From a virus: a stretch of DNA of 64,000 nt. The stretch covers positions 32,001 through 96,000 of the IMG/VR virus record IMGVR_UViG_3300035670_000038; one strand, given 5' to 3'. Position numbers and translations under genes: made by a program. This document shows, piece by piece, positions 41,726 through 54,765 of the stretch (positions are counted from its first letter, which is position 1; the number at the start of each line of letters is the position of its first letter). The notes beneath the pieces are model-generated. The model ran no database searches, was not told where the DNA came from, and saw nothing but the letters and a program-made list of their open reading frames with translations.

Positions 41726-41726
41726 A

Positions 41727-42557
41727 ATGAAAAAGATTATAATGGTTTTTTCACTTCTCACGATGGTCGCTTGTAAGGAAGTGGTTTATCTTACTGGCCC
41801 AACCGTCACCAAGACAGATACACTTGTAGTTTCTGGTGGACTGCAAAATGTGAATATTCGTATTGATTGGGCAAAGTTCAATAAGACGAATATTAGTAAA
41901 CTCACTAGTGAACTTATGGCAAATGCGGTATCCGATAGTGGTTTGAGGATTACGCATGTTGGAGCACGTCTTGTGTATCCCAACAACAATGCTTCCTTCT
42001 CACAGTCTGCCGCTCGTGACACTACCAATACTCGTTTAATTACGATGCAGGTTCCTCCTACCGACACCGCACATCTGTATGTTCTCGCGGTCTTTGATTC
42101 TGGGAGTGTTCGTAAGGCACTTAAAATGGGTGTAAAGCGTAATATTAGTATTCCTGCAAACGGGTCGGTTCTCTTTACTCTGGATTCGTTGACGTTACTG
42201 GATACTGAGTGGACTATTGATTCTATTGCGGACAGTACCCTTCGTATGGTCAACGATACGATTCGTGTGACTTTATCAGATACACTCAGTACTGGAAATG
42301 TTCGAGTTCGTGTAACTGACCCTTATCAGATTGGTACGCAGTTTATCGCATATTCTAATCGTATCGTGAAGTTTTATGGGTCTGGATTTGAGTATGGTAA
42401 TACCGATGGCTGGCGAAAGTTTGGTATTGTAACAAACAATCGTGACACCGCAACGTCTACAGATACATTCTGGCCTTACATTGATGGTGTATTCTTTAAT
42501 CTAAATGGTGAATATCTTGTCGGTAAGAAAGGTATTATTAAAACTACTTGGCAATAA
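41727..42557 (+). CDS. putative lipoprotein
   Basis: MKK plus hydrophobic stretch plus MVAC lipobox; beta-rich. Confidence 0.6.
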   Translation: MKKIIMVFSLLTMVACKEVVYLTGPTVTKTDTLVVSGGLQNVNIRIDWAKFNKTNISKLTSELMANAVSDSGLRITHVGARLVYPNNNASFSQSAARDTTNTRLITMQVPPTDTAHLYVLAVFDSGSVRKALKMGVKRNISIPANGSVLFTLDSLTLLDTEWTIDSIADSTLRMVNDTIRVTLSDTLSTGNVRVRVTDPYQIGTQFIAYSNRIVKFYGSGFEYGNTDGWRKFGIVTNNRDTATSTDTFWPYIDGVFFNLNGEYLVGKKGIIKTTWQ

Positions 42558-43927
42558 TGAAAGATATACGGCGTGGATTACCTTCTGTTGGTAAACTGAT
42601 AGAGAAACAGGTAATTCGTGATATGATGATGTCCTCTCCGCGTTCATTAGTTATGGACGCGGTTAGGGCTGCCGTTGATGATGTACGATTGAATCCCGAT
42701 ATGATTCCCGACACGGATGAAAGTTGGGGAAATCTTGTACAAAAATATCTTGATAAGATGATGACTCGTTCACTTCGCACTGTCATCAATGCTACTGGTG
42801 TCATCGTACATACTAACTTAGGTAGAGCACCACTTGCAATACCAGCAATCAATGCAATACGAGACATCGCATATGATTTCTCTAATCTGGAATATGATAT
42901 TGAGAATGGTGTTCGAGGTTCACGACATACACATTGTGCCAAACTCTTATGTAAACTAACAGGTGCAGAAGATGCCATCGTGGTAAACAACTGTGCCGCA
43001 GCACTGGTACTCACTCTCAATACCTTATCACAGAATAAAGAAGCAATCATATCCAGAGGAGAACTGGTGGAGATTGGTGGTAGTTTCCGTGTTCCCGATA
43101 TTATGGCTCGGAGTAATGCACAATTGGTGGAAGTCGGAACCACGAATAGAACACATCTCAAAGATTATGAAAATGCTATTACACCAAATACAGGTGCAAT
43201 CTTATCGGTGCATAGAAGTAACTTTGTACAAAAAGGATTTGTATCATCTGTTCTTCCCGATGAACTGGTGTTATTATCGGAGAAATATAATATCCCACTC
43301 ATTCACGATTTCGGTAGTGGATTGATGGTTGACCTATCAGAATGGGGATTGTATGGTGAACCAACGGCAACAGATGCAGTCCGTGATGGTGCATCGGTGG
43401 TGATGATGAGTGGAGATAAATTATTAGGTGGACCCCAGGCAGGTATTATTTTGGGGAAGAAATCTATAATTAAAATGTTAAAGGAAAATCCATTGGCACG
43501 GGCATTTCGTGTAGATAAACTAACTCTCGCAGCATTGGAAGCAACATTAGAATTGTATTATGATAAAGATATAGCAGTGAATGAAATACCAGTTCTCAGA
43601 ATGATTACGATGTCTCCTTACGAATTACATACCCGTGCTGCTAACATAGTTGACAAACTGGTAGAGATGGGTTATAATGTAAATGTGGTTGATTCGGAGG
43701 CTACGATTGGTGGGGGAGCATTTCCTGACTCTAAAATAGACTCTATCGCAATTAGTATAAATGACATAAATCCAAATGAGGTAGATAAGAAGCTACGAGC
43801 ACTTGGAACACCTATTGTTGGTCGTATAGTAGATAATACATTATTATTAGATATGCGAACAGTTCCAGCAATATACGATGATATATTATACAGTAGTTTA
43901 ACCGAAGTATTAACCCTTGACAAATAA
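42557..43927 (+). CDS. selA: L-seryl-tRNA(Sec) selenium transferase (selenocysteine synthase)
   Basis: LPSV, VINATGVIVHTNLGRAPL, NLEYD...G.RGSR, VNNCAAA, SRGELVEIGGSFRVPD, EVGTTNRTH, VHRSNF, DFGSG, SGDKLLGGPQAG (PLP Lys), RAFRVDK, LDMRT. Confidence 0.97.
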   Translation: MKDIRRGLPSVGKLIEKQVIRDMMMSSPRSLVMDAVRAAVDDVRLNPDMIPDTDESWGNLVQKYLDKMMTRSLRTVINATGVIVHTNLGRAPLAIPAINAIRDIAYDFSNLEYDIENGVRGSRHTHCAKLLCKLTGAEDAIVVNNCAAALVLTLNTLSQNKEAIISRGELVEIGGSFRVPDIMARSNAQLVEVGTTNRTHLKDYENAITPNTGAILSVHRSNFVQKGFVSSVLPDELVLLSEKYNIPLIHDFGSGLMVDLSEWGLYGEPTATDAVRDGASVVMMSGDKLLGGPQAGIILGKKSIIKMLKENPLARAFRVDKLTLAALEATLELYYDKDIAVNEIPVLRMITMSPYELHTRAANIVDKLVEMGYNVNVVDSEATIGGGAFPDSKIDSIAISINDINPNEVDKKLRALGTPIVGRIVDNTLLLDMRTVPAIYDDILYSSLTEVLTLDK

Positions 43928-43945
43928 CTTATGAACGATTATATT
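43917..43945 (+). promoter_or_regulatory. sigma70-like promoter TTGACA-17-TATATT
   Basis: ttgaca aataacttatgaacgat tatatt. Confidence 0.6.
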
Positions 43946-44051
43946 CTATATCTAAGCTTGATGGTGATTGGTGGAGCAATCTGGAATATTAGAAATTATG
44001 TTAAGTATCTGGAAACTAAGAACGCAATACTACTTCAAATGCTAATGGAGA

Positions 44052-44348
44052 ATGGTTATGACGCTGACTTGGCCCTACGGACCAGAAACGCTGACTCAAC
44101 ATCTGAATAGATTTTCCAAGTATCTCCACCGCAAAAGAAAGTTTGATATTCCTAATCTGTCTGTGATGACTTATAATATGTACCTTCACTACAAGACGGA
44201 AACTGGTGTACACATTGAACTGTATGAAGATTTGGCTCGTCCGTTAAAGAATAAAGTTCACTTATGGAGCTTAGGACAATTGCAAGATGTAGCGCAATTC
44301 CTAGCTAACAAGATACAAGTTCATCTTGGCGTGACAGCCGAACAATAA
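44052..44348 (+). CDS. hypothetical protein
   Basis: GGAG RBS; 98 aa. Confidence 0.55.
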   Translation: MVMTLTWPYGPETLTQHLNRFSKYLHRKRKFDIPNLSVMTYNMYLHYKTETGVHIELYEDLARPLKNKVHLWSLGQLQDVAQFLANKIQVHLGVTAEQ

Positions 44349-44349
44349 G

Positions 44350-44378
44350 AAACCCACCATTCGGTGGGTTTTTTATTA
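44350..44378. terminator. intrinsic terminator between convergent genes
   Basis: aaacccacc-attc-ggtgggttt followed by a T-tract. Confidence 0.8.
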
Positions 44379-44999
44379 TTACTTAATTGGTAATCCAGTT
44401 AATCGTCGTACACTATCCAACGGCACCTTGTGCATCTCAAATGATTTACTACGTTCTGGAACATTTGGAAACACATACGATTCTACTTGGTCCTTGTAAC
44501 GGAGTACTTTCCAGCAGTGCGTTGGAACAGCAACTCTCTTGATTCGTGATACTTCACCCACACATCCCGCTTGAACAAATACAGAATCATTTTCTACAGC
44601 AAGAACACGAGTCCACTCTTCCAAGTTCTTCCACTGCCCACGATTAAGTCCTGGATATTGTGGTGCCATATTTGTGAAATAGAAACTTTCTGCCATATGA
44701 ACGTCATTACAACGTGCGTCTGCTGCTGGGGAAATGTGTCCTCTGTCAAATCCAGACTTTACATAATCTTCGTCAATATCACTTTCCTTACGAACTTGTG
44801 GGTCTGGAAGAAATTTATCGGTTCTCTTTGCGGGGGTCTTACATTCTAATTCACCACGGGTCGTTCCCCATTCTACTAAGATAGGATAGTGCAGTGACTT
44901 AGAAAACACAGAGATATAATTCTTATGAACGACACGAATTGTATCTTGTGCAGTCAAAGGTGAAACAAATAATACCAACAATAATAAAATCTTTTTCAT
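44379..44999 (-). CDS. secreted DNA/RNA non-specific endonuclease (NucA/EndA-type)
   Basis: signal peptide; GFDRGH, ESFYFTNMAPQ, LNRG.W..LE, VPTHCWKV. Confidence 0.9.
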   Translation of the reverse strand: MKKILLLLVLFVSPLTAQDTIRVVHKNYISVFSKSLHYPILVEWGTTRGELECKTPAKRTDKFLPDPQVRKESDIDEDYVKSGFDRGHISPAADARCNDVHMAESFYFTNMAPQYPGLNRGQWKNLEEWTRVLAVENDSVFVQAGCVGEVSRIKRVAVPTHCWKVLRYKDQVESYVFPNVPERSKSFEMHKVPLDSVRRLTGLPIK

Positions 45000-45021
45000 A
45001 CTGTCTCCAAAAAGGTCATTC

Positions 45022-45045
45022 ATAAATAGTTTCCTCACTATTTAT
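45022..45045. promoter_or_regulatory. divergent pair of ACTATTTAT motifs (putative late promoters)
   Basis: ATAAATAGT-ttcctc-ACTATTTAT between divergent genes; motif also at 13362, 33505 and 37212. Confidence 0.55.
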
Positions 45046-45069
45046 AGATTGGATATTTCCGGAGGATTC

Positions 45070-46437
45070 ATGTCTCAGTATAAACTGGATATAATACCAA
45101 GTCAACTCTCTGATGCATTGGTAAACATCAACCAACATGGTAAAGATGGTTGGGAGTTCATACACTTATATAATAATATGGGTGTGTTTAAAGCAGCAGC
45201 CGCAGGGTCGATAACCAGCGGTTCTTTGAACCCAACCGCGGACGCATTTGGTCGTAATCGTGTATCCGAACAATTCACACTAGGTGACTACAAACATATC
45301 TATGGAAATATTGCGGATACCTTCATCAATAAGTTAACTGGTGACGGAGATGTTTCATATAATATAAACGAGGCATCGGTTACCTTATCTGCTACCAATA
45401 GTGGAAGTTCTGCAATTCACCAAACCAAAATGTATCATCATTATATGCCTGGCAAGAGTCAGTTCATTCTTTCCAGTTTTGTGTTTGGTGCACCAGTAAA
45501 TGGATCCACAAAACGTACTGGATACTTTGATGACCATAACGGTATCTTCCTCGAACAAGATGCTACGGGAAGTTTACAATTTGTTATCCGTTCCGCAACT
45601 AACGGTACTGGGTCTATCGTAGAAAATAGAGTCAAACAAGAAAATTGGAATGTCAATACATTGTCAAGTGGTGATTTTACTCTTGATGTCACTAAATCCG
45701 CATTACTATATATTGATTTCCAATGGTTAGCGGTTGGTCGTGTTCGTATGGGATTTATTCATAAGGGCATTGGAGTTATTTGTCACGTATTTGACCACAC
45801 GAATTTGACCGATGTGGCATATATGCAAAACCCAAATCTTCCAGTTCGATGTGAAATTATAAATTCTACAACTGTCGCATCGTCGATGGATCAAATTTGT
45901 TCTACGGTAGTGAGTGAAGGTGGATATAACGAAGCGGGTCGTGCGTTCTCTATTTCCAATGACAGTTTCCGCTCACTTACGAGTGGGTCAACTTTACCAA
46001 TCCTCGCAATCAGATTAAAAAATTCTGTGAATGGGCTACCAAATCGTGCATTCGTTCGTTTACAAGAAGCAAGTGTATTCACTGACCAACAAAGTATTCG
46101 ATTCCTATTAAGTAAGTTACCTAGTGGGTCAATGTTAACCACAGCAAGTGCATGGGTGTCGGTGAATAACAATAATTCTTTGGTAGAATACAATACAAGT
46201 GCTACTGGATACACCGATGGAACTGTGTTACTCTCTGGATTCGTTGGGGCAAATTCTTTAAACCCAACACAAGCAAATCCACTAAGTACTACTAGAGGTG
46301 GAGTAGATAATAAGCAAAACTTCATTACACAAAATTATGATAGTACAGATAGTGAAATATATGTGTTAATTGCAAAGAACATGACCGCTAGTACAACAAA
46401 TGTTGGTGGATCGTTATTGTGGTCAGAAATTTATTAA
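45070..46437 (+). CDS. putative virion structural protein
   Basis: DAFGR.RVS, Y.PGKS, DFQWL.VG.VR.G, NLPVRCEI; S/T/G-rich. Confidence 0.6.
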   Translation: MSQYKLDIIPSQLSDALVNINQHGKDGWEFIHLYNNMGVFKAAAAGSITSGSLNPTADAFGRNRVSEQFTLGDYKHIYGNIADTFINKLTGDGDVSYNINEASVTLSATNSGSSAIHQTKMYHHYMPGKSQFILSSFVFGAPVNGSTKRTGYFDDHNGIFLEQDATGSLQFVIRSATNGTGSIVENRVKQENWNVNTLSSGDFTLDVTKSALLYIDFQWLAVGRVRMGFIHKGIGVICHVFDHTNLTDVAYMQNPNLPVRCEIINSTTVASSMDQICSTVVSEGGYNEAGRAFSISNDSFRSLTSGSTLPILAIRLKNSVNGLPNRAFVRLQEASVFTDQQSIRFLLSKLPSGSMLTTASAWVSVNNNNSLVEYNTSATGYTDGTVLLSGFVGANSLNPTQANPLSTTRGGVDNKQNFITQNYDSTDSEIYVLIAKNMTASTTNVGGSLLWSEIY

Positions 46438-46440
46438 CAT

Positions 46441-47091
46441 ATGCCATTATCATTAACTAATCAAAATGATGCAGGTAGTTTCGGTTTAACTGGAACAACA
46501 GGTAGATTCGCTGCTTCGGTCACAGTTGTGGCGGATAGTATTCGTGCATTCTTAACTGGCAGTTCTTCATCCTCATACGATGCTGCAGCAGTCAACACGT
46601 GGGTAAAGGTGACCCAAGCAGAATATAATAGTGTTGCTGCAAGATTGTCCTCCGTTACAAAGGTTGGTGCAACAGACTTACAGGTTAACACTAGACTTAT
46701 CGCAACAGGATATAACCTTTCACAAACAAACGATTTTACCATACCATCCGACACATACATTTTTGGTATGATAATTGAACCATGGAATACTAATAGTTCT
46801 GGTAGTGTTGGGTATACCACTACCGTTACTGGTAGTATCAGCGATTACAATACTTACTTTGGTAATAATTTCGTAGGATTAATTGGTGGTGGTCGTAATT
46901 ATTTTATTCTTAAAAAACCAACCACAGCTACAACATCTACTGTGTATCCATTCGTAACGATGAGTGCTTCTCCAAATGGTATGAATTATGAAGGATGGGG
47001 TTGGACTGGAACGATTTGGCAATATACCACCGCGGCTTCTAACACGATGGCTAAATTCCAATTACTCACCACAACAAATAAACAGTGGTAA
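46441..47091 (+). CDS. Thr/Ser-rich putative structural protein
   Basis: T/S/G-rich beta composition; follows a structural-like gene. Confidence 0.5.
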   Translation: MPLSLTNQNDAGSFGLTGTTGRFAASVTVVADSIRAFLTGSSSSSYDAAAVNTWVKVTQAEYNSVAARLSSVTKVGATDLQVNTRLIATGYNLSQTNDFTIPSDTYIFGMIIEPWNTNSSGSVGYTTTVTGSISDYNTYFGNNFVGLIGGGRNYFILKKPTTATTSTVYPFVTMSASPNGMNYEGWGWTGTIWQYTTAASNTMAKFQLLTTTNKQW

Positions 47092-47114
47092 TAAATAGTA
47101 TTTAATATAATACA

Positions 47115-47173
47115 ATTCTTAATGAAATCTTAATGTACGGGGACTTGTCTTAGGCAGGTTCCCGTATTATATT
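47115..47173 (+). promoter_or_regulatory. duplicated promoter element, copy 2 (TTGTCT-17-TATATT)
   Basis: near-identical to 39377-39432. Confidence 0.8.
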
Positions 47174-47214
47174 TCTAGAGTAATGAAGTCCACACACTCT
47201 CTCTATGAGGCACT

Positions 47215-48381
47215 ATGACTACTCTGGTAAAGGTTCTCGACAACTTCACTGCGATTGACCACAACGGCAACGACATCACGGATGAGATTCCGTTCACCGC
47301 TCGTAAGCGTGCATACACGAATGGTGTCGCCCTTCGTATGGTGGCGACTAAGACGGGTAAGACGCAGTGGCGTGATACGGACCTCGCGGATTTCGAGGCG
47401 CTCCGTAAGACGGCGGTTCCTACGAAGCCAATTGAGAATGTGAAGAATGAGCTGGAGAATGATGTGGTGGAGTTCTTGAAGGATTGTGAGAAGGTCAAGC
47501 CCGCACATCTTATTATGGATTCGCTGAAGTGGCGTTATCTGATGCGGTCAGTCCTTCGTGGCAAGAATATTATGATGACTGGTCCTTCGGGTTGTGGTAA
47601 GACCCTCGCTGCGCAGACCGTGGCTAAGGTTCTTGATGGTCGGCAGTTCTTCTACTTTAACGTTGGTGCAACCCAAGACCCGCGTTCTACTCTTATCGGA
47701 AATACCCATTACAGCAAGGACAAGGGTACCTTCGTAGCGGAGGCTCTGTTCGTCAAGGCGATTCAGACTCCGAACGCTATCGTTCTCCTTGACGAGCTGA
47801 CCCGTGGACACGCCGATGCGTGGAATATTCTGATGACGGTCCTCGACGAGAACCAGCGGTATCTTCGTATTGACGAGATGCCCGATACTCCGACGATTAA
47901 GGTGGCAAAGGGTGTGACCTTTATCGCTACGGCAAACATCGGTGCCGAGTATACCGCCACCCGCGTCCTCGACCGCGCGATGATGGACCGATTCGCTTCG
48001 GTGGTCGAGATGGAACCGCTGGGTAAGGATGATGAGGTCAAGCTTCTTACGATGACGTATCCTGAGGTGTCGGCACATAATCTGTCCGCTATCGCTGAGA
48101 TTGCAGACCACACTCGTACTCAGGTTCGTAGTGATGACCCGAAGGTGACTACCTCTATCTCATCCCGTATGACTGTCGAGATGGCTGGTCTGTTGAATGA
48201 CGGGTTCAATCTCGCAGAGGCGGCTGAGGCGTGTATCTATCCCTTCTTCTCTCCCGCTGGTGGTAATGACTCTGAGCGGACGTATATGAGGCAGTTGGTA
48301 CAGAAGTTCTTCTCCACGGATTCGAATGGAACCCAGGCGCCGTGGGAGAATATCGCTAAGGACGAGAACACTCCGTTCTAA
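47215..48381 (+). CDS. MoxR/CbbQ/CobS-like AAA+ ATPase
   Basis: GPSGCGKT, LLDELTR, ATANIG, LDRAMMDRF, S.R. Confidence 0.9.
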   Translation: MTTLVKVLDNFTAIDHNGNDITDEIPFTARKRAYTNGVALRMVATKTGKTQWRDTDLADFEALRKTAVPTKPIENVKNELENDVVEFLKDCEKVKPAHLIMDSLKWRYLMRSVLRGKNIMMTGPSGCGKTLAAQTVAKVLDGRQFFYFNVGATQDPRSTLIGNTHYSKDKGTFVAEALFVKAIQTPNAIVLLDELTRGHADAWNILMTVLDENQRYLRIDEMPDTPTIKVAKGVTFIATANIGAEYTATRVLDRAMMDRFASVVEMEPLGKDDEVKLLTMTYPEVSAHNLSAIAEIADHTRTQVRSDDPKVTTSISSRMTVEMAGLLNDGFNLAEAAEACIYPFFSPAGGNDSERTYMRQLVQKFFSTDSNGTQAPWENIAKDENTPF

Positions 48382-48551
48382 TGTGTAATTGCAAGAGATA
48401 CGACCCAGAGGGTGAACGTGATAGTGGGTACGCCTGTTACTATTGTAACGGGCGTATTCCCGTTCGTTCTATTCACCAAGAAAATGTAAATGGTAAAATC
48501 TTTTATTTCTGTTCTTCCGACTGTGCGCATCTGTGGTCAAGTATAGAGTAA
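48381..48551 (+). CDS. small TRASH/YHS-like zinc-binding protein
   Basis: 56 aa: MCNC...CYYC...NGKIFYFCSSDC. Confidence 0.55.
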   Translation: MCNCKRYDPEGERDSGYACYYCNGRIPVRSIHQENVNGKIFYFCSSDCAHLWSSIE

Positions 48552-48585
48552 ATGATATGTATAGAAGTACCCACTAAGAGGTTTT

Positions 48586-49149
48586 ATGAATCCACGATAT
48601 AATGTGATTATCCCAAAAATAATAAAAGAGAAAGTTCTTGATTTCGCTATGAATTCTGGACTATCTTATTTTAATATAAACGCGGACCCTCGTAAGGAAG
48701 CAGAGAAGGGGAAGCGTAGATTTGCTATGCTTACAGAGTATCCCGAATTGGAAATATCACAAATGGTAGATGCGTTCAAAGAAATCGCATACGAAGAAAT
48801 TGGTATTGCAGAAATTCTACCCGAACCACAATTCGGTAATTTTATTGGTGTAAATTTAGAAGGTGGAAGTGTGCATGAACACCAAGATGCTCGTGATGAA
48901 AATAATAATGTTCATCTCCGTTTTAATTTTATGATTCAGAAACCAGATATTGGTGGTAATCCTATCATTAATGGAAAAGAATATTGGATTGATGAGGATA
49001 CGTGTTGGATGAACTACGCATCGGAATGGAAACATGGGTCAACACCTGTGGCGGGTTCACGTGCACGTGTGGTATTGAGTATGGGTGCATGTGTACCTGA
49101 ACATATTGTACGAGAAAAGATTTCCAAAAAAATTGGATGGGAGGCATAA
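48586..49149 (+). CDS. 2OG-Fe(II) oxygenase
   Basis: VHEHQD (HxD), HGSTPV.G...RVVLS. Confidence 0.8.
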   Translation: MNPRYNVIIPKIIKEKVLDFAMNSGLSYFNINADPRKEAEKGKRRFAMLTEYPELEISQMVDAFKEIAYEEIGIAEILPEPQFGNFIGVNLEGGSVHEHQDARDENNNVHLRFNFMIQKPDIGGNPIINGKEYWIDEDTCWMNYASEWKHGSTPVAGSRARVVLSMGACVPEHIVREKISKKIGWEA

Positions 49150-49985
49150 TGTTAGAAAATATACAATACGACAGAATTCTACAACCACAAGAGGATGGTT
49201 ATGATGTACAAATTTTTCAAGAAATTAAAAAGAGTCAGGGGTATGTTCCTATTGACTATCCATCTTCTATGGTTAAGTTTCACGGAAAGGTTGCAGTCCT
49301 TCCTCCGTCCGAACATGCGGTAGATTATCTCAACAATATTAATTTTGAACGTATAGCTAATTACTATAGCGCTGCTTGGGGTCTTGGGTACAATAACGTT
49401 CGTCAATTAGTTGACGCGTATATTCCTAACATTGACCCCAACACAAACTTCAGTGGTCAACATGATGGTGTGGAATTTGGACATCCAGGTGCATGGGGTA
49501 TTATGTCCTCATTGGTGACACACGACCCCGCAGCTACGTTGGCAAACTTGGTGCACGAACTAATGCATTGGAAGTTAGTCGCACTAGGATTTGGACTTCG
49601 TGCGAACACGTTCTTCCCAACCACACAAGAATTTATTCTAAACCACGAAAGTGAATTGTGCTGGTCTATTGTGAATAGTTACGCAGACACTGCACAACCT
49701 GCCGTTGGAAATAAACCAACTGACAGACCTGTATCCGCATCTCTTCACGCATATCTTTCATTCCTTGGTGTGGCGTATACACATACCCAAGTGTTGAAGA
49801 TTGACCCAAACAACCAAGAATCGCAATGGAGAATGACACGTTGGGGTTCACGATTTGATAAGTGTTTGGATGAAATTTTTAAGGTTGGAAAGTTTACCCC
49901 GAAGGGACAACGTTTGATGATTGGTGTTGCAAAGTGGACATCTGATTTCTTCTATGAAGCACGACAAGTAGGTTACAAACTCTAG
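49149..49985 (+). CDS. HExxH-motif protein (alpha-KG/HExxH peptide-modification family-like)
   Basis: LANLVHELMHWKL; RPVSASLHAYLSF; FTPKG..L. Confidence 0.7.
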   Translation: MLENIQYDRILQPQEDGYDVQIFQEIKKSQGYVPIDYPSSMVKFHGKVAVLPPSEHAVDYLNNINFERIANYYSAAWGLGYNNVRQLVDAYIPNIDPNTNFSGQHDGVEFGHPGAWGIMSSLVTHDPAATLANLVHELMHWKLVALGFGLRANTFFPTTQEFILNHESELCWSIVNSYADTAQPAVGNKPTDRPVSASLHAYLSFLGVAYTHTQVLKIDPNNQESQWRMTRWGSRFDKCLDEIFKVGKFTPKGQRLMIGVAKWTSDFFYEARQVGYKL

Positions 49986-49993
49986 GAGGTTAT

Positions 49994-50245
49994 ATGAACG
50001 AGATTTTATTAGCTCTTATTGGTTCAATCGCAATGATAGGATGTTGGGGGGCAATTATTATGAATTACGAAAAGCAAAAGGTAAAACAAGCAAATAAAGA
50101 AAAGAATATGTACGAAACGTGTGTATCGTGTGGTGAAATGGTACATGTCCGAAAGGATACACCGATTGACCAGAGGTTCTACTATGTGGAAGGTGCTGGT
50201 CAATTGTGCCACGATTGTTATGATTATACCTATCGTAGTAAATAA
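49994..50245 (+). CDS. membrane-anchored zinc-finger protein
   Basis: N-terminal TM; CVSC...YVEGAGQLCHDC. Confidence 0.65.
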   Translation: MNEILLALIGSIAMIGCWGAIIMNYEKQKVKQANKEKNMYETCVSCGEMVHVRKDTPIDQRFYYVEGAGQLCHDCYDYTYRSK

Positions 50246-50260
50246 TATTTAATATACCAC

Positions 50261-50289
50261 TTGACAAATATATAACAATCTGTTATATT
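50261..50289 (+). promoter_or_regulatory. sigma70-like promoter TTGACA-17-TATATT
   Basis: ttgaca aatatataacaatctgt tatatt, intergenic. Confidence 0.75.
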
Positions 50290-50319
50290 TCAAGTAACCC
50301 TAACCGTAAGGAGAAACAA

Positions 50320-50526
50320 ATGCCGAAGGCGCCTGTGTTCAAGCATGGAGAGATGGTGGTGATTACGCATCCGACTGATGACCATTATCTTGATATGACG
50401 GGTGTAGTGATGCAAGAAGAGTATCGTAGTTACATCAATGACTACGTGTATTACGTCCGACTTGATGAAGATGGATATGAGATGGAATTCACGGCAGATG
50501 AACTTACACTTGAAGAGGATATGTAA
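50320..50526 (+). CDS. small SH3-like hypothetical protein
   Basis: AGGAG RBS; F..G..V...G.V...Y.V pattern. Confidence 0.6.
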   Translation: MPKAPVFKHGEMVVITHPTDDHYLDMTGVVMQEEYRSYINDYVYYVRLDEDGYEMEFTADELTLEEDM

Positions 50527-50527
50527 A

Positions 50528-50701
50528 ATGGGTAAGACTTGGAAGGACAAGAATAAGTGGGAAAAGAAGCAAGAGGGGAAGAATATCAAAAAGACAAAGA
50601 AAGAACATAAATATTCTTCTGGTAGTAATGAGGATAGAAACATCAATTATAACCGCATCTCTAGCTTCGAATGGTATGACTACGATTACGAGAACGATTA
50701 A
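50528..50701 (+). CDS. small basic hypothetical protein
   Basis: MGKTWKD..., K-rich. Confidence 0.45.
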   Translation: MGKTWKDKNKWEKKQEGKNIKKTKKEHKYSSGSNEDRNINYNRISSFEWYDYDYEND

Positions 50702-51368
50702 TTATGTAAAGGATTACGATACGTTGTCCACGATGGCTGCGGATATCGTAAGGAAGGAAATACATAGAAGCAACACAACTGTACTTGGATTACCTACTGG
50801 TGGAACTCCCATCGGTATGTATGAGAAGTTGGTGAAGGATAAGACAATTGATTGGCGATTCGTCCAGACATTTAATCTTGACGAGTATGTGGGAATTGAC
50901 CCCAACCATCCAGAGAGTTATAGAAACTTTATGGCACGGCATTTCCACAATCACGTAAATATCCCAAAAGAATATATCTACTTTCCAGACCCGAATAATC
51001 CAGAGAACTATGATGACCTCATCGCACAACGTGGGGGCATTGACCTGCTCGTAATGGGTATGGGGTCAAATGGACACGTGGCGTTTAATGAACCTGGAAC
51101 GGATATGATGTCTGAAACACATATTACGGACTTAAAGGAACAAACCATAAAGGATAATTCCCGTTTCTTCAATTCAATTGACGAGGTTCCAACCCAAGCG
51201 GTCACGATGGGACTACGAACTATCTTGGGTGCACAAAAGATATTGTTGTTGGTGACGGGAAAGAAGAAGTTAAAGGTTTTGCAAAAGGCTATCTGGAAAC
51301 CTGACTATAGTATCCCTGTATCTATTATTAATAGTCACAGAAAGGTGGAGATATTATATTGTGATTAA
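50676..51368 (+). CDS. nagB: glucosamine-6-phosphate deaminase
   Basis: LGLPTGGTP, FNLDEYVG, GGIDL...G.G.NGHVAFNEPG, NSRFF, AVTMG. Confidence 0.93.
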   Translation: MTTITRTINYVKDYDTLSTMAADIVRKEIHRSNTTVLGLPTGGTPIGMYEKLVKDKTIDWRFVQTFNLDEYVGIDPNHPESYRNFMARHFHNHVNIPKEYIYFPDPNNPENYDDLIAQRGGIDLLVMGMGSNGHVAFNEPGTDMMSETHITDLKEQTIKDNSRFFNSIDEVPTQAVTMGLRTILGAQKILLLVTGKKKLKVLQKAIWKPDYSIPVSIINSHRKVEILYCD

Positions 51369-51873
51369 TAAGTTAATGGTAGTTGCTCATCCCGACGATG
51401 AAACGTTATTCGGTGGTGGGGAACTGATTAAGCATGCAAAAGAATATAAAGTAATTGTATTAGATTATGGAAATCATATTACCCGTCATATTGAATTCCT
51501 ACGGGCAATGCAAATGATTGGTATAGAGAAGTGGGAACATTGGGATGGGGAACCCTACAAGACCTCTGCCGCATATAATGAATCTATCCTCATCCCCCGC
51601 ATAGAACGGGTCCTGGATGAGCAGAATTGGGATATGGTGGTCACTCACAATCAAGGTGGGGAGTACGGTCACTATCGGCATGTATCCACGCATAACGTGA
51701 TGGCACGGCTGTGTCCTGAGAAATTATATGTATTTAATACGGACTTGACTACTCGACTTCCCGACGATATATTACATAAGAAGCACGAGGTACTTTCTAC
51801 CGCATACCAATCGCAATATAACGTATTAAAATGGTTTCGATGGGAATATGAGGTTCTAACTAAATACCAATAA
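51361..51873 (+). CDS. PIG-L/LmbE-family N-acetylhexosamine deacetylase
   Basis: VAHPDDE, THN..GEYGH..H, Y.SQ. Confidence 0.85.
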   Translation: MINKLMVVAHPDDETLFGGGELIKHAKEYKVIVLDYGNHITRHIEFLRAMQMIGIEKWEHWDGEPYKTSAAYNESILIPRIERVLDEQNWDMVVTHNQGGEYGHYRHVSTHNVMARLCPEKLYVFNTDLTTRLPDDILHKKHEVLSTAYQSQYNVLKWFRWEYEVLTKYQ

Positions 51874-51895
51874 TTTTAATCTCTACGGTCAAACT

Positions 51896-52480
51896 ATGTA
51901 TAGAACACGAAACGGATTATCGGAGTCACGTATGGATAAGCAATACCGTGAAATGGTCAATACGCGTAGATTATATAAGTTTGAAGGAGAATTCTTTAAT
52001 CTCCTACCTTACAGATATATGACCGTACAAATGAATCTCACCACACTCAGAAATATTGCTAAAATATTGTGGAATGGGGAAAATACTACGTGGTTTTCGA
52101 TCCCTGAGGTTCGTTTCGGCAAAGGATTATATCACGGCACCGCCAGAGGCAAAAAATATTATTATAGCTGGTGTGACCGACAAACTATTGAACTCGCTCC
52201 CACTCAACGTGATATCTTGACCTTGATACACGAAATGGTACACGCATTGGGGTATGGATACCACGATACGAAATTCGTGGGGAAGTATATTGAAATGTTG
52301 GTCAAGTACGCAGGGGTTCCAAAGAAAGAACTTATCCAAGGCATGCAACACTATAAGGTCGCTCTTCCACGTAAATACAAGAGGTTATATAAATGCCAAG
52401 ACTCCCACAAGGTACCATCACGCTCACCGCGCAAAGGTGGATGGACTTCCAAACAGGGAAAGTCCAAAAAAACCCGTTAA
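51896..52480 (+). CDS. SprT-like HExxH zinc metalloprotein
   Basis: LIHEMVH....H...F. Confidence 0.6.
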   Translation: MYRTRNGLSESRMDKQYREMVNTRRLYKFEGEFFNLLPYRYMTVQMNLTTLRNIAKILWNGENTTWFSIPEVRFGKGLYHGTARGKKYYYSWCDRQTIELAPTQRDILTLIHEMVHALGYGYHDTKFVGKYIEMLVKYAGVPKKELIQGMQHYKVALPRKYKRLYKCQDSHKVPSRSPRKGGWTSKQGKSKKTR

Positions 52481-53157
52481 AAGACCAATCCATCAACGAG
52501 CAGTATTACGAAAGTCTTTACGAGGAATATAAAGAACGTCAACTTAATGAGTTTACCACGACTCGTATCATTATCCCAAAAGGTACGAAAATGATGGTGT
52601 GGAACGACCACCGTTCCTTTGTTGGGGACATGCTCACTTACATAGACTATTGGACAAACCGTGGGGAACATTACTTTCGCATCCCAAGGGGTAAGGAACT
52701 CTCGGTCGAACATATATCTAATAGAGATATTGATATTCCACTTGTTGTGTGGTCAACCGTACTCAGTCATATTATTGCCGATAAGACACGTACTACTAAA
52801 TACAGTATATTAGAGGATTCCCCTATCTATGGTCTTTGGGTCAAGATGTATGAAACTCCTACCTATATTCCACAATTAGATAAAAAGATTGTTGCCTATG
52901 GAGTATGGGAACAAGATATTTCAGACATCAATATAAAGAATAATGTGGTGTTTCCTGTTGGTGGTGCTTCGATGATGAACAATCCAAAAAGAGCATATAC
53001 AAATCCCTTAACAGGCAAAACTATTGTCCCAGGGAATACTAATATTTGGGTATGTGGATATTGTGGTGGTGATACCTCCCAAATAGAATATGATTATTTA
53101 AGTGGTACGAATCATCTATCGTGTGAATTACAAAATAGTATGGGAGCTAACTGCTAA
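52393..53157 (+). CDS. hypothetical protein
   Basis: 254-aa ORF; C-terminal CGYC...H..C. Confidence 0.55.
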   Translation: MPRLPQGTITLTAQRWMDFQTGKVQKNPLKDQSINEQYYESLYEEYKERQLNEFTTTRIIIPKGTKMMVWNDHRSFVGDMLTYIDYWTNRGEHYFRIPRGKELSVEHISNRDIDIPLVVWSTVLSHIIADKTRTTKYSILEDSPIYGLWVKMYETPTYIPQLDKKIVAYGVWEQDISDINIKNNVVFPVGGASMMNNPKRAYTNPLTGKTIVPGNTNIWVCGYCGGDTSQIEYDYLSGTNHLSCELQNSMGANC

Positions 53158-53602
53158 CACACCTATGCCTCCATATAGTCATCCTATAAACATCCAAGAC
53201 ATCTACGACTATTATAAGCTAATTAATGGTCAGTACTTGGCAAAAGAAAATGATAAGATAATAGTCTGGTATAACTACGATGGGTTACAATCTATGTTCG
53301 ATACCGTGGTCGGACTAGAAAAAGAATATAATAGTGAAATGATAGACTTTAATGGTGTAACAGAAGGATTTACTAACTATATAACAAGTCTAGAGCATTG
53401 GAAAGAATGTAAGGTAGTCGAGGGGAAAGTAGATAATATAACATATAAAACAAAAATAAAGCAAATGGAATTAAAAACTGGAATAAGTCCATATTATCGT
53501 TTTAACTATGTCAATATCCATAATGTGATATTAGCAGAACCAAAAATCCATCCTATCTATGGGGAATATGTAGGGTGGTCAACCTCGGTAATAACCCTAT
53601 GA
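53102..53602 (+). CDS. hypothetical protein (start uncertain)
   Basis: ends in HPIYGEYVGW, shared with the next ORF. Confidence 0.5.
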   Translation: MVRIIYRVNYKIVWELTANTPMPPYSHPINIQDIYDYYKLINGQYLAKENDKIIVWYNYDGLQSMFDTVVGLEKEYNSEMIDFNGVTEGFTNYITSLEHWKECKVVEGKVDNITYKTKIKQMELKTGISPYYRFNYVNIHNVILAEPKIHPIYGEYVGWSTSVITL

Positions 53603-53895
53603 CAAACTATATCGCACAGATGTTACATCCAAGTGATTTGGAGAATGTATCAATCCCACAAGGGGAAACTATTACCTTATTTAAAAATTACCATGGAATA
53701 GAAAAGTACTTTGAGGGAGATACTATCCCTGACACGCTTCTTCTACGGGTAACGGCGGTCAAGAAGGAAGGAGACATCTACCAACTATATAACGTAGGAA
53801 ATAAGGGATTTAAAAAGAGTTATTTAAAGGTATATGATACGGAACAATCTCACCCCCAATATGGGGCATATGTCGGATGGATGGTACACCTATGA
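53599..53895 (+). CDS. hypothetical protein
   Basis: ATGA-coupled; HPQYGAYVGW. Confidence 0.55.
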   Translation: MTNYIAQMLHPSDLENVSIPQGETITLFKNYHGIEKYFEGDTIPDTLLLRVTAVKKEGDIYQLYNVGNKGFKKSYLKVYDTEQSHPQYGAYVGWMVHL

Positions 53896-53997
53896 AAACA
53901 ATATTTTGGCTTATAGTATTAATCGTCGCTATAGTATTGGTAGCAACATCGGATAAGAACCCACCTGATGAGAATTGGTACTAAGGGATACAACAAT

Positions 53998-54098
53998 GGG
54001 AGTGCAGTGAAGCTGGTGGTTCGACTGATCTTCAAAATCAGTAAGTCTTATACCCAACTCCATAGACTGCGGGGTTCGATTCCTCGGCATTCCCGCCA
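53998..54098 (+). tRNA. selC: tRNA-Sec (anticodon UCA)
   Basis: 8-bp acceptor GGGAGTGC/GCATTCCC with G discriminator and encoded CCA; 6-position D stem with TGGT loop; anticodon arm ACTGAT-CTTCAAA-ATCAGT; long variable arm AGTCT...AGACT; 5-bp T stem CGGGG-TTCGATT-CCTCG (bacterial 8/5 fold). Confidence 0.95.
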
Positions 54099-54144
54099 CA
54101 TAGTAGGTAGGATAAGGCGGATATACCCCATATAGAGGTATGTC

Positions 54145-54765
54145 CGTTTTATCATTTTTACCGCCCGTTTTATCATTTTTGTGTGCGTTTTATCATTTTT
54201 CGTGAATACGGGGTCGCGGTCATATTAATATGATATATTGGTAATATCAAAATGATATCAATTCTATAGAACTCTATATCGATAAAATAAAGGCAATTAA
54301 TAGGAGCATTAGTGTTTTCGCTTCGTGAGCAAATTTTTTTATGCTTGGAAAATCGCCCCACCTCGTGAATGTAAACAAGCCTGATAAGCATGTGGATATG
54401 TGGAAAAATGATAAAACCCTAAAAGCATGATAAAACTGGATGATAAAACCATCGCCCGTATAAACCCCGAAGAATACTTTAGCTCTGAAGCAAATGTGGA
54501 TAACTCCTAATAATATGTTATATTGACACGCCCTGCTGACATTATGACATTACCCATTATTGCCCGAAGAAACACCGAAGCAATTGTAACGATTTCTCTA
54601 CCCTATTGACAATAACGGCGTGGGCTATTATCTTTATATTAGGAAAGGCTACGCCTCGTTTTATCACCTTTTGGATTCGTTTTATCATTTTTTGAGGTTG
54701 GTGGAAAATATGAACCCCACCGCCCCTGCATAGTCTATGGAGCGATGGGGAACGATAAAAATAGA
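54145..54765. repeat. non-coding block with iteron-like (C)GTTTTATCA repeats and DnaA-box matches; putative origin or control region
   Basis: CGTTTTATCATTTTT at 54145, 54166 and 54186; inverted TGATAAAAC at ~54409, 54428 and 54441; two more at ~54657-54690; TGTGGATAA at 54495. Confidence 0.65.

Follow-up and report, generated by a model that had tools for sequence, protein, structure and literature searches.

The window analysed here is a 64,000-nucleotide stretch (G000:C1:32001-96000) of a 131,302-bp IMG/VR virus record, a linear fragment whose completeness CheckV estimates at 67%; the full genome, that of an uncultured jumbo or giant bacteriophage with a GC content of 40%, is about 217 kb. 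The window and the rest of its contig (C1) hold selA, a tRNA-Sec gene (selC), selD and a candidate selenoprotein gene (Table 1). Phage genes flank selA on both sides: PHROG matches include a virion structural protein adjoining it (309 bits) and, elsewhere on the contig, a PolB DNA polymerase (621 bits), a helicase (368 bits) and a ribonucleotide reductase (RNR; 427 bits). A preliminary description, made from the sequence alone, had placed these genes among clearly viral ones; that context held, as the PHROG matches and the IMG/VR record show, while the names gp45, gp44 and gp62 are that description's own labels. The contig also carries 24 tRNAs besides tRNA-Sec, plus one tmRNA.

Table 1. Features on the phage contig. 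Positions refer to the window unless prefixed by C1, the parent contig.
Feature	Position	Strand	Basis or remark
Lipoprotein-like gene, 276 aa	41727..42557	+	N-terminus MKKIIMVFSLLTMVAC; stop overlaps selA start (TAATG)
selA, L-seryl-tRNA(Sec) selenium transferase, 456 aa	42557..43927	+	TIGR00474, PF03841, PF12390, PLP-Lys motif
tRNA-Sec (selC), anticodon UCA, 8/5, G73, encoded CCA	53998..54098	+	RF01852, minimum-energy fold
Repeat cluster, 5 exact copies of GTTTTATCATTTTT	54146..54692	four +, one -	Directly 3' of tRNA-Sec
selD, Cys-type	C1:98579-99610, about 2.7 kb beyond the window end	-	Family model
Candidate selenoprotein gene, 203 codons, UGA at codon 61	C1:116946-117557	+	Conserved in-frame UGA, hairpin, Cys homolog

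SelA matches the NCBIfam selA equivalog model TIGR00474 at 555.9 bits (cut-off 267.9; positions 2-449 of 455) and Pfam PF03841 at 476 bits (1-366 of 367 positions), has the N-terminal tRNA-binding domain PF12390 (31 bits), and carries the motif MSGDKLLGGPQAG, i.e. SGDK(PLP-Lys)LLGGPQ. The earlier claim of a full-length SelA with its signature motifs, including the PLP lysine, therefore held. An identity as DgaE, from a SelA-like family, was rejected (only 79 bits versus a cut-off of 385). The preliminary description also had selA translationally coupled to a lipoprotein gene: the overlap itself can be read in the sequence, but "lipoprotein" rests only on an N-terminus that seems to resemble a lipoprotein signal, an inference from sequence alone. 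That upstream gene has no family match in Pfam or PHROG, and its homolog occupies the same position in three related metagenome contigs (L090-L092, described below).

At gathering thresholds, Rfam matches nothing in the window except the tRNA-Sec (RF01852, 53998-54094, plus strand, 57.7 bits versus a gathering score of 47), and the bases that follow the match are G, corresponding to G73, and then CCA. Its minimum-energy fold has the 8-bp acceptor stem and 5-bp T stem of the bacterial 8/5 form, a D stem of 6 bp that includes a single G.G mismatch and ends in a 4-nt loop, a 6-bp anticodon stem whose loop (CUUCAAA) presents the UCA anticodon, and a long variable arm with a 5-bp stem and 15-nt loop, versus a 9-bp arm in the Gemmatimonadaceae tRNAs. 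The acceptor 5' strand, the D, anticodon and T loops, G73 and CCA are common to it and the tRNA-Sec genes of the Gemmatimonadaceae genomes G002-G004. The canonical 8/5 tRNA-Sec with a UCA anticodon that had been placed about 10 kb downstream of selA (the spacing is 10.07 kb) is thus upheld, with the provisos of the D-stem mismatch and of ARAGORN, which called zero tRNAs in the window, this one included. The neighbouring repeat GTTTTATCATTTTT has 7 matches in the window at ≤1 mismatch versus 0.07 expected by chance; the cluster may fall outside the Sec module, and we assign it no role. Gene polarity switches at the cluster.

A UCA anticodon could also belong to a general opal suppressor serving a phage-wide change of code, rather than to a tRNA for Sec. 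Phages with stop-codon recoding are known (PMC9523058), as are phage tRNA-Sec-like tRNAs of other identities with an 8/4 fold (PMC5389517). However, TGA is an ordinary terminator in this phage, ending 58 of the 199 ORFs on the contig; the fold is 8/5, not 8/4; the tRNA shares its contig with selA and selD; and a recoding signature is seen at one UGA site only. We regard this alternative as virtually ruled out.

Of the further genes that the preliminary description proposed seeking in the rest of the genome (selB, selD and serS), selD is present on the contig: its product reaches 377 bits (cut-off 125), the frame has no stops, and the N-terminal motif is AKCAGCASK. As the active site of this SelD has Cys rather than Sec, its synthesis does not itself need Sec. 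By contrast, selB was found neither on the 131-kb contig nor in four related records that jointly tile the remainder of this genome type, and serS, looked for alongside selB in the phage, was not found. The phage Sec system is therefore partial and, with no phage selB found, decoding hangs on an unproven fit of the phage tRNA and SECIS with host SelB.

In phylogenies, the window SelA groups with 11 metagenome proteins in a single clade (SH-aLRT 100) that nests inside Gemmatimonadaceae SelA, the branch with Gemmatimonadota on one side being supported at SH-aLRT 98; the named SelD matches within the top 120 number five, all Gemmatimonadota. In a related phage (L003/G001; collinear with C1:12.7-48.9 kb) the selA is a different one (53% identity), which sits at another insertion site and clusters with other Gemmatimonadaceae. 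Related phages thus captured selA twice. The only viral-collection match besides L003 was L004, which has a GC content of 68.7% and a partial selA at the contig end and so looks like host DNA. The host is likely to be a member of the Gemmatimonadaceae. Genomes of this family contain tRNA-Sec, selD and selB, a complete Sec trait, and selB scored above cut-off in all four candidate host genomes (4/4). The phage's GC content lies 25-30 points under that of these proposed hosts, which is unusual for a phage–host pair.

These affinities, along with the linear, incomplete record and the host-like L004 with its selA, could be taken to mean that Gemmatimonadota DNA was mis-joined to a phage contig, or that a cellular contig was misclassified as viral. 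Several observations argue against such an artefact. The base composition of selA is phage-like (GC 39.6%, GC3 28.9%), unlike that of the nearest cellular selA genes, the donors (GC 71-76%, GC3 81-95%); SelA is merely 52-59% identical to cellular SelA and has phage genes on either side. Three independent metagenome contigs from other assemblies (L090, 13.2 kb; L091 and L092, ~8 kb each), collinear with C1:67.3-80.0 kb and with selA at 83-89% identity, repeat the gene order around it, and Logan contigs from run X1, possibly the sample from which the record derives, bridge both junctions (41539-42659 and 53567-54132) with 0 differences. Because L090-L092 show the same synteny and the GC content is phage-like rather than donor-like, selA is not an assembly artefact, and we consider the broader explanation highly improbable. 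Two findings that, according to the preliminary description, would have refuted it are therefore not seen: the contig is not chimeric at selA, and SelA groups with genuine Gemmatimonadaceae SelA, not with SelA-like paralogs.

That description had also raised viral selenoproteins encoded elsewhere as one option, to be checked by looking for in-frame UGA codons with a SECIS. One gene, outside the window but on the same contig as selA, selC and selD, has a conserved in-frame UGA, a SECIS-like hairpin and a Cys homolog, which supports and extends that option. When the 15 TGA-ending ORFs that extend in frame for ≥20 codons are compared, the post-UGA hairpin of this gene is the strongest (-17.1 kcal/mol versus -1.5 to -9.8 in the others), and a second screen that returned 3 candidates ranked it top. 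The 12 related viral loci, which are 41-80% identical and range in GC content from 33 to 52%, all keep the UGA within GITSxGFD-U-PMLRNWVxQFG, and conservation along the protein peaks at the residues flanking the UGA. The hairpin has an apical 5-bp stem with a GUU loop and 2 compensatory pairs that split two clades (3 versus 3 distinct sequences); since both pairs divide the same two clades, they may stem from a single event. One natural Cys homolog, P0262, reads through the UGA site with Cys at that position. Among the 11 library homologs, P0262 included, 7 begin at a Met just 3' of the UGA and 2 are N-terminal pieces that end before it. An ATG lies one codon past the UGA, so two separate genes are formally possible. 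The protein has no match in Pfam or PHROG, and structure prediction gave only poor models (pLDDT 42.7 and 57.1). In G006, closely related and also in possession of the UGA gene, the syntenic site lacks selD; the selenoprotein can therefore occur without a phage-borne selD. None of the five related records bearing the gene, all of them fragments, has selA, selD or tRNA-Sec above the gathering score.

The explanation that we favor, and think likely, is a genuine but partial phage-borne Sec pathway, with at least one phage selenoprotein gene, that boosts Sec-tRNA for the phage's own selenoprotein while SerRS and SelB come from the host. The data show the genes to be present, intact and resident in a phage, and they also show their origin and the conserved signature of UGA, hairpin and Cys homolog; every biochemical step is inferred, without expression or protein evidence. 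The phage tRNA-Sec would be serylated by host SerRS via its long variable arm and G73; judging by homology, phage SelD would provide selenophosphate and phage SelA would convert Ser-tRNA-Sec to Sec-tRNA-Sec. Host SelB would then bind Sec-tRNA-Sec and the hairpin, which starts a few bases 3' of the UGA, and Sec would be inserted to give a 203-aa phage protein, to which no function is assigned. The putative purpose is more Sec-tRNA during infection, so that the phage selenoprotein is made. The earlier inference of a virus-supplied Sec-charging step is supported by SelA and tRNA-Sec, and by selD in addition, with enzymatic activity inferred by homology.

Alternatively, the genes could be a classical auxiliary metabolic module that keeps host selenoenzymes (e.g. 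formate dehydrogenase) running in infection, with the UGA gene incidental or in truth two genes. The complete Sec trait of the proposed host lineage, the ATG just past the UGA, and G006, in which machinery and UGA gene are not strictly linked, speak for this idea. Against it stand in-frame conservation across the UGA in every one of the 12 viral loci, the existence of a Cys homolog, the conserved hairpin, and the peak of conservation around the UGA; we find it improbable as the sole account. The two purposes are not mutually exclusive, and host selenoenzymes might conceivably also profit from the phage Sec genes, although this is inferred: the earlier suggestion that the virus sustains them remains a possibility with no evidence either way.

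The preliminary description further suggested that the virus might replace host tRNA-Sec or SelA cut by defence nucleases; in a wider form of this idea, the phage genes stand in for host components that such nucleases cleave or shut off, or they act as decoys. We have no data bearing on such replacement. It has been proposed that phages use their tRNA sets to escape defences that deplete tRNAs (idea cited in PMC10747093), and this contig has its 24 other tRNAs. However, to our knowledge no defence targets tRNA-Sec, a decoy would need neither SelD nor a SelA that is intact and retains its tRNA-binding domain, and the two selA captures in related phages point to an enzymatic need. Counter-defence thus seems to us a remote possibility.

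The phage pathway that we propose resembles the bacterial selA-selB-selC-selD system (E. coli prototype; Gemmatimonadaceae version) in that SelA, SelD and tRNA-Sec pass their family models, the tRNA has an 8/5 fold, G73 and CCA, and the in-frame UGA of the target is closely followed by a hairpin. It differs in being carried by a virus, in missing selB, and in the drift of its base composition to phage values; in addition, selD and tRNA-Sec are adjacent in G002-G004, whereas the phage Sec genes are dispersed across 25 kb and both strands. Among phages, tRNA-Sec genes have been reported in Basilisk-like Bacillus phages (PMC6145125) and in huge wastewater phages (PMC10747093), in one case amid many tRNAs. 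In the sections bearing on them, these rest on tRNAscan calls, their significance is stated to be unknown, and no SelA, SelD or selenoprotein gene is named; in the present phage, SelA, SelD and a candidate target accompany tRNA-Sec. Huge phages augment translation with tRNAs, tmRNA, release factors and aminoacyl-tRNA synthetases (PMC7162821), much as this large phage supplements that of its host with 24 tRNAs and a tmRNA, but a pathway for the 21st amino acid is not among the functions listed there ('seleno' and 'selen' are absent from the main text, supplements excluded). In the literature searched, we found no bacterial virus described with the combination of SelA, SelD, tRNA-Sec and its own selenoprotein gene; the preliminary description had called a virus with both enzyme and tRNA very unusual. 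A few viruses do redefine UGA as Sec (PMC8310308). Poxvirus glutathione peroxidase is an example of a selenoprotein of a eukaryotic virus. Such proteins are likewise virus-encoded and depend on Sec recoding, but the viruses that encode them use host machinery entirely, with a SECIS in the 3'-UTR, whereas the present phage has three components of its own and a bacterial-type hairpin within the ORF.

The selA gene encodes a full-length member of the SelA family. Its product scores 555.9 bits against the NCBIfam equivalog TIGR00474 (cut-off 267.9), spanning positions 2-449 of 455, and 476 bits against Pfam PF03841, spanning 1-366 of 367. The Sec-synthase N-terminal domain PF12390 is also recognized (31.3 bits, cut-off 22), and the translation contains the motif MSGDKLLGGPQAG (SGDK), which includes the PLP-binding lysine; the roles of this lysine and, in tRNA binding, of the N-terminal domain are assigned by analogy with known SelA. 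That the phage enzyme converts Ser-tRNA(Sec) to Sec-tRNA(Sec) is inferred. As an alternative identity we considered the SelA-like paralog (DgaE/selA_rel), against which the phage protein reached only 79.3 bits, far under the cut-off of 385.3. The preliminary description, made from the sequence alone, had claimed a full-length SelA with signature motifs, including the PLP lysine, and a canonical 8/5 tRNA-Sec with a UCA anticodon, and both claims held, with the qualification that the D stem of the tRNA carries a G.G mismatch. It had further described selA as coupled through TAATG to a lipoprotein gene: the stop codon of the upstream gene does overlap the selA start in this way, and the upstream protein opens with a signal that is only lipoprotein-like.

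Features of the phage contig (C1, IMG/VR record IMGVR_UViG_3300035670_000038) on which the analysis rests
Feature	Position	Strand	Evidence or remark
selA	window 42557-43927	+	456 aa
tRNA-Sec (selC)	window 53998-54094	+	Rfam RF01852, 57.7 bits (gathering score 47)
selD	C1:98675-99607, outside window	-	TIGR00476, 377.1 bits (cut-off 125); no internal stop
Predicted selenoprotein gene (UGA gene)	C1:116946-117557, outside window	+	in-frame TGA, downstream hairpin
tmRNA, full-length	C1:115636-115977 (L006:3636-3977), outside window	+	RF00023, 109.4 bits, model positions 1-374
24 tRNA genes, one cluster	C1:120117-131301, up to the very end of the contig		
Virion structural protein	1.1 kb downstream of selA		PHROG match, 309 bits
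DNA polymerase	on C1		PHROG match, 621 bits
Helicase	on C1		PHROG match, 368 bits
Ribonucleotide reductase	on C1		PHROG match, 427 bits

The tRNA-Sec is the sole Rfam match in the window at gathering thresholds, and G73 and an encoded CCA directly follow the matched segment. Its minimum-energy fold is the bacterial 8/5 cloverleaf, with a 13-bp acceptor/T branch (8 + 5 bp), the UCA anticodon in a CUUCAAA loop, a 25-nt variable arm (5-bp stem and 15-nt loop) and a D arm in which a 6-bp stem with the one G.G mismatch closes a 4-nt loop. ARAGORN made no tRNA call in the window, tRNA-Sec included, and with -m it made no call at the phage tmRNA, despite the RF00023 match there. An exact 30-nt stretch of the phage tRNA-Sec used as a query also gave no match. 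The tRNAs-Sec of three Gemmatimonadaceae genomes that are candidate hosts (G002-G004) score 76-82 bits; they share the D loop, anticodon loop, T loop, G73 and CCA with the phage tRNA, and G002 also shares the 5′ strand of the acceptor, whereas the phage stems are AT-richer and its variable arm is different.

The preliminary description had proposed looking elsewhere in the genome for selB, selD and serS, and of these selD was found, while selB and serS were not. The N-terminal active-site motif of the phage SelD, AKCAGCASK, marks it as Cys-type; the catalytic role of the Cys or Sec and of the Lys in this motif is assigned by analogy with known SelD. Both types occur among the candidate hosts: the position is Sec (TGA, CAG-U-ASK) in G003 (L210, G003:C10) and Cys in G002 (L209, G002:C116). 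The GC content of the phage selD is 46.5%. For selB (TIGR00475) there was no match in C1 at E ≤ 1, but C1 is only 67% complete and absence from the full genome is unproven; nor was there a match at E ≤ 0.01 in the related viral records G001, G006, G007 and G008, of which G007 covers the stretch that C1 lacks. Searches of C1 for selU and serS at E ≤ 0.1 were likewise negative. All four Gemmatimonadaceae genomes searched carry selB above the cut-off, and in G002, G003 and G004 the tRNA-Sec lies directly downstream of selD. Within the records searched, therefore, the phage does not meet the complete bacterial Sec-decoding trait (selA, selB, selC and selD), since selB is unfound. Record G006 is collinear with C1:97.0-130.5 kb (59-95% identity), and the 3-kb stretch of C1 that includes selD corresponds there to about 1.1 kb; no selD was found in G006, and the machinery genes are therefore accessory. 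A selD profile (A7) gave no match in a viral collection of 2.9 million contigs.

A candidate for the other item to be sought elsewhere in the genome, an in-frame UGA with a bacterial SECIS, lies on C1 outside the window. Of the C1 ORFs that end in TGA, 15 can be extended in frame by 20 codons or more, and among these the 203-codon gene, with its UGA at codon 61, is followed by the hairpin that is by far the most stable (-17.1 kcal/mol vs -1.5 to -9.8 for the others), and it ranked top of the three candidates returned by a second screen of C1. The other two, at 124167 on the plus strand (16 and 153 codons) and at 98479 on the minus strand (28 and 480 codons), were set aside because each has a short upstream part and its own start nearby.

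The TGA is kept in 12/12 related viral loci as well as in C1, although these loci are only 41-80% identical and range from 33 to 52% GC. All 12 have a conserved in-frame ORF upstream of the TGA with its own GGAGG-type ribosome-binding site, and the flanks GITSxGFD-U-PMLRNWVxQFG are kept throughout, showing coding conservation on both sides of the UGA. In the protein collection, every one of the 11 homologs covers only the part after the TGA, and the first 14 residues of these post-TGA homologs are nearly invariant. A profile search of 1.84 billion representative proteins returned 11 matches. Seven of them begin at the Met that follows the UGA, and two are N-terminal fragments that stop directly upstream of it. 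Of the remaining two, one matches only weakly, through a repeat within a 1574-aa protein; the other, the 117-aa protein P0262, is alone in reading through the site together with its flanks and has Cys in place of Sec (...AAATD-C-RLLRNWVTQFG...). The apical hairpin, a 5-bp stem with a GUU loop starting 26 nt after the UGA, is kept in 6/6 distinct sequences; the criteria for the distance between UGA and hairpin and for the loop G are those of the bSECISearch description. In the alignment 90.7% of cells are paired, vs 18-57% when the 3′ partners are slid, and in two pairs both partners change, G-C becoming A-U and U-A becoming C-G; as each variant belongs to one of two clades, a single event may account for the covariation. 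The hairpin that follows the UGA of the G003 selD has a different apical loop. Together, the kept UGA, the coding on both sides, the hairpin and the Cys homolog P0262 make up the signature that is standard for selenoprotein genes; insertion of Sec itself is inferred from sequence alone. A rival reading is general opal suppression, in which UGA would be read through at large. UGA acts as an ordinary stop in C1: in a greedy set of 199 ORFs, 115 end in TAA, 58 in TGA and 26 in TAG.

What the predicted selenoprotein does is not indicated by its relatives or its surroundings. It matched no Pfam or PHROG family at E ≤ 1, the AF2 models have low pLDDT (42.7 for A3 and 57.1 for A6), Foldseek found no similar PDB structure at E ≤ 0.001, and its neighbours (glycosyl- and sulfotransferases, HNH) offer no functional clue. 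Profile A6 also had no match in 401 genomes of the phylum of G002, a search that had no positive control and shows little. In three relatives with 33% GC (L182, L184 and L185), the next gene opens with a radical-SAM-like CNLSCPYC motif (about 1390-1570 in L182). This gene may be a functional partner of the selenoprotein; no such gene follows in C1.

C1 itself is a linear contig of 131,302 bp, estimated by CheckV to be 67% complete, with 39.8% GC and no N; the window spans its bases 32001-96000. In a tblastx comparison, the related 148-kb record G007 matches C1:106-131 kb, then has about 86 kb almost unmatched, and then matches C1:0.8-38.9 kb, a layout from which we infer a full genome of about 217 kb for this phage type, that is, a jumbo phage. 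Both G006 and G007 extend past the end of C1, which is also the edge of the 24-tRNA cluster.

A further rival is an artefact, with cellular DNA joined to a phage contig. When metagenomes were scanned with SelA, related genes were found on contigs L089 (94% identity, 2.2 kb), L090 (89%, 13.2 kb), and L091 and L092 (83%, about 8 kb each), all of about 41% GC; L090-L092 follow the gene order of C1:67.3-80.0 kb on either side of selA. The phage gene has 39.6% GC and a GC3 of 28.9%, vs 71-76% and 81-95% for the nearest cellular selA genes. Logan contigs of sequencing run X1, which holds 92% of the sampled words, cover the junction of selA with its upstream gene (41539-42659) and that of the tRNA-Sec with the adjoining ORF (53567-54132) with 0 differences. 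Since C1 may itself derive from the X1 sample, they offer only weak independent support. Being short, none of the Logan contigs extends from selA to selC; read depth was low at window 53408-53924 in runs X3, X5 and X8. A chimeric or cellular contig, which would have refuted the preliminary description, is thus not borne out at selA, given the collinear L090-L092 and the phage-like GC.

One further viral record carries a selA. A selA profile run against the collection of 2.9 million viral contigs hit only two loci, L003 and L004, and a single SelA query against the same collection found no relative. L003 lies in G001, a viral record of 36,962 bp and 39.7% GC that matches C1:12.7-48.9 kb in the same order, with amino-acid identities of 58-97%. 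Its selA is only 53% identical to the window selA, groups instead with other Gemmatimonadaceae (L014 and L019, SH-aLRT 98), and sits between homologs of C1 at about 43.4 and 43.66 kb, where C1 has no selA. A different selA at a different site implies that related phages acquired selA on two or more occasions, or else exchanged the gene they had. L004, a 38,590-bp contig classed as viral, was rejected as a second phage selA: with 68.7% GC and only a partial selA (43% identity) at the contig end, it is probably host or prophage-border DNA. A separate "phages" collection was not informative: none of its 15 records reaches 60% identity, and most are short fragments or bacterial.

The closest database relatives of the phage SelA are metagenome proteins, at 83-96% and then 66-69% identity (including the subclade P0025-P0030), followed by Gemmatimonadota SelA at 55-62%; in species-representative genomes, the best 12 matches are all Gemmatimonadota (51-59%). 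We built a quick IQ-TREE phylogeny of 68 rows: the window protein, 19 proteins from the database and 48 loci chosen from 80 plus L003. The window SelA groups there with 11 metagenome proteins in a single clade (SH-aLRT 100), which is nested in Gemmatimonadaceae and has a sister group that includes an uncultured Gemmatimonas. The phage protein is thereby placed among the SelA of Sec-using Gemmatimonadaceae (genomes with tRNA-Sec, selD and selB), not among paralogs, the outcome that would have counted against the preliminary description. For SelD we have a similarity list and no tree: a clade at 77-92% (P0139-P0147) is followed by matches at about 60-66%, and the five named proteins in that tier are all Gemmatimonadota. 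We infer that Gemmatimonadaceae are the likely host, with the caution that phage and proposed host differ by 25-30 points in GC. The phage tmRNA is uninformative on this question: it matched 77 of 401 genomes of the phylum of G002, solely over the conserved 3′ 23-73 nt.

The genes and their signatures are shown, whereas the host and each step of the biochemistry are inferred from sequence alone. In the pathway we propose, charging of the phage tRNA-Sec would fall to host SerRS; selenophosphate would come from phage SelD, phage SelA would produce Sec-tRNA-Sec, and host SelB would read the phage hairpin, inserting Sec at UGA-61. Being Cys-type, the phage SelD would need no Sec for its own synthesis, unlike some Gemmatimonadaceae SelD proteins. 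The earlier suggestion that the virus supplies its own Sec-charging step is thus supported at the level of genes (selA, selC and selD), and enzyme activity remains inferred. Upkeep of host selenoenzymes is a rival use for these genes and is compatible with the main reading; counter-defence, the replacement of host tRNA-Sec or SelA cut by defence nucleases that the preliminary description had raised, was also weighed. Beyond supply of Sec for a phage gene, a bolder version of our reading, which we favor by a narrow margin, is that a lineage of Gemmatimonadaceae jumbo phages runs a semi-autonomous pathway for the 21st amino acid, serving a phage-specific selenoprotein family whose fold and function are unknown: limiting Sec-tRNA would have led to repeated capture of host genes, namely selA (at least two independent events), selD and selC, and the Cys-type selD would free the pathway from a Sec-dependent host SelD. 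Were this true, it would be the first known case of a virus with its own Sec biosynthesis genes, and it would show selenium availability to shape phage fitness.

Sec decoding is seen as a trait of cells, and viruses known to use it take all of the machinery from the host. A tRNA-Sec in Basilisk-like phages was, to its authors' knowledge, the first in bacteriophages and of unknown significance (PMC6145125); others were found in 3/7 huge wastewater phages (PMC10747093), phages also carry 8/4 tRNA-Sec-like tRNAs (PMC5389517), and selenoprotein families are described as containing few viral sequences, or none, in the GOS data set (PMC9402790). Those earlier phage reports concern a tRNA of unknown meaning, whereas in the C1 phage the tRNA is accompanied by the two enzymes of synthesis, SelA and SelD, and by a gene that is a plausible target. 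In the open-access literature searched (supplements excluded) we found no report of a phage selA, selD or selenoprotein: "seleno" is absent from the main text of the jumbo-phage papers PMC13573597, PMC7162821 and PMC13037316, and in PMC5029168 "phage" occurs only within "phagedenis". Taken singly, the components are unremarkable representatives of families already known; what is new, as far as that literature goes, is that a virus carries them, apparently without selB and beside a plausible target of its own. With the phage set one can test directly if selenoproteins are made by phages, if the supply of Sec-tRNA limits them in infection, and how a foreign tRNA-Sec/SECIS pair is matched to host SelB. 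It also yields a host prediction, Gemmatimonadaceae, for an uncultured jumbo phage group (few phages are known for this family), a candidate new selenoprotein family to characterize, and a compact AT-rich selA/selD/selC set of possible use in Sec engineering.

Several other features of the window lie near these genes. Between selA and the virion structural gene, a single gene on the minus strand (44379-45038) encodes a DNA/RNA non-specific endonuclease (PF01223, 129.6 bits). The selA region is bracketed by the plus-strand genes for a 753-aa protein (39464-41725) matching phrog_5298, annotated as a cobalamin biosynthesis protein (E 3e-9), and for a MoxR-type AAA+ ATPase (47215-48381; PF07728, 62.7 bits), and a protein of the glucosamine-6-phosphate isomerase/6-phosphogluconolactonase family is encoded at 50628-51368 (+; PF01182, 80 bits). 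Just past the tRNA-Sec, where gene polarity switches, GTTTTATCATTTTT occurs in five exact copies (four on the plus strand and one on the minus, 54146-54692); these are possibly operators, promoters or origin iterons, and with up to one mismatch the whole window holds 7 matches vs 0.07 expected by chance.
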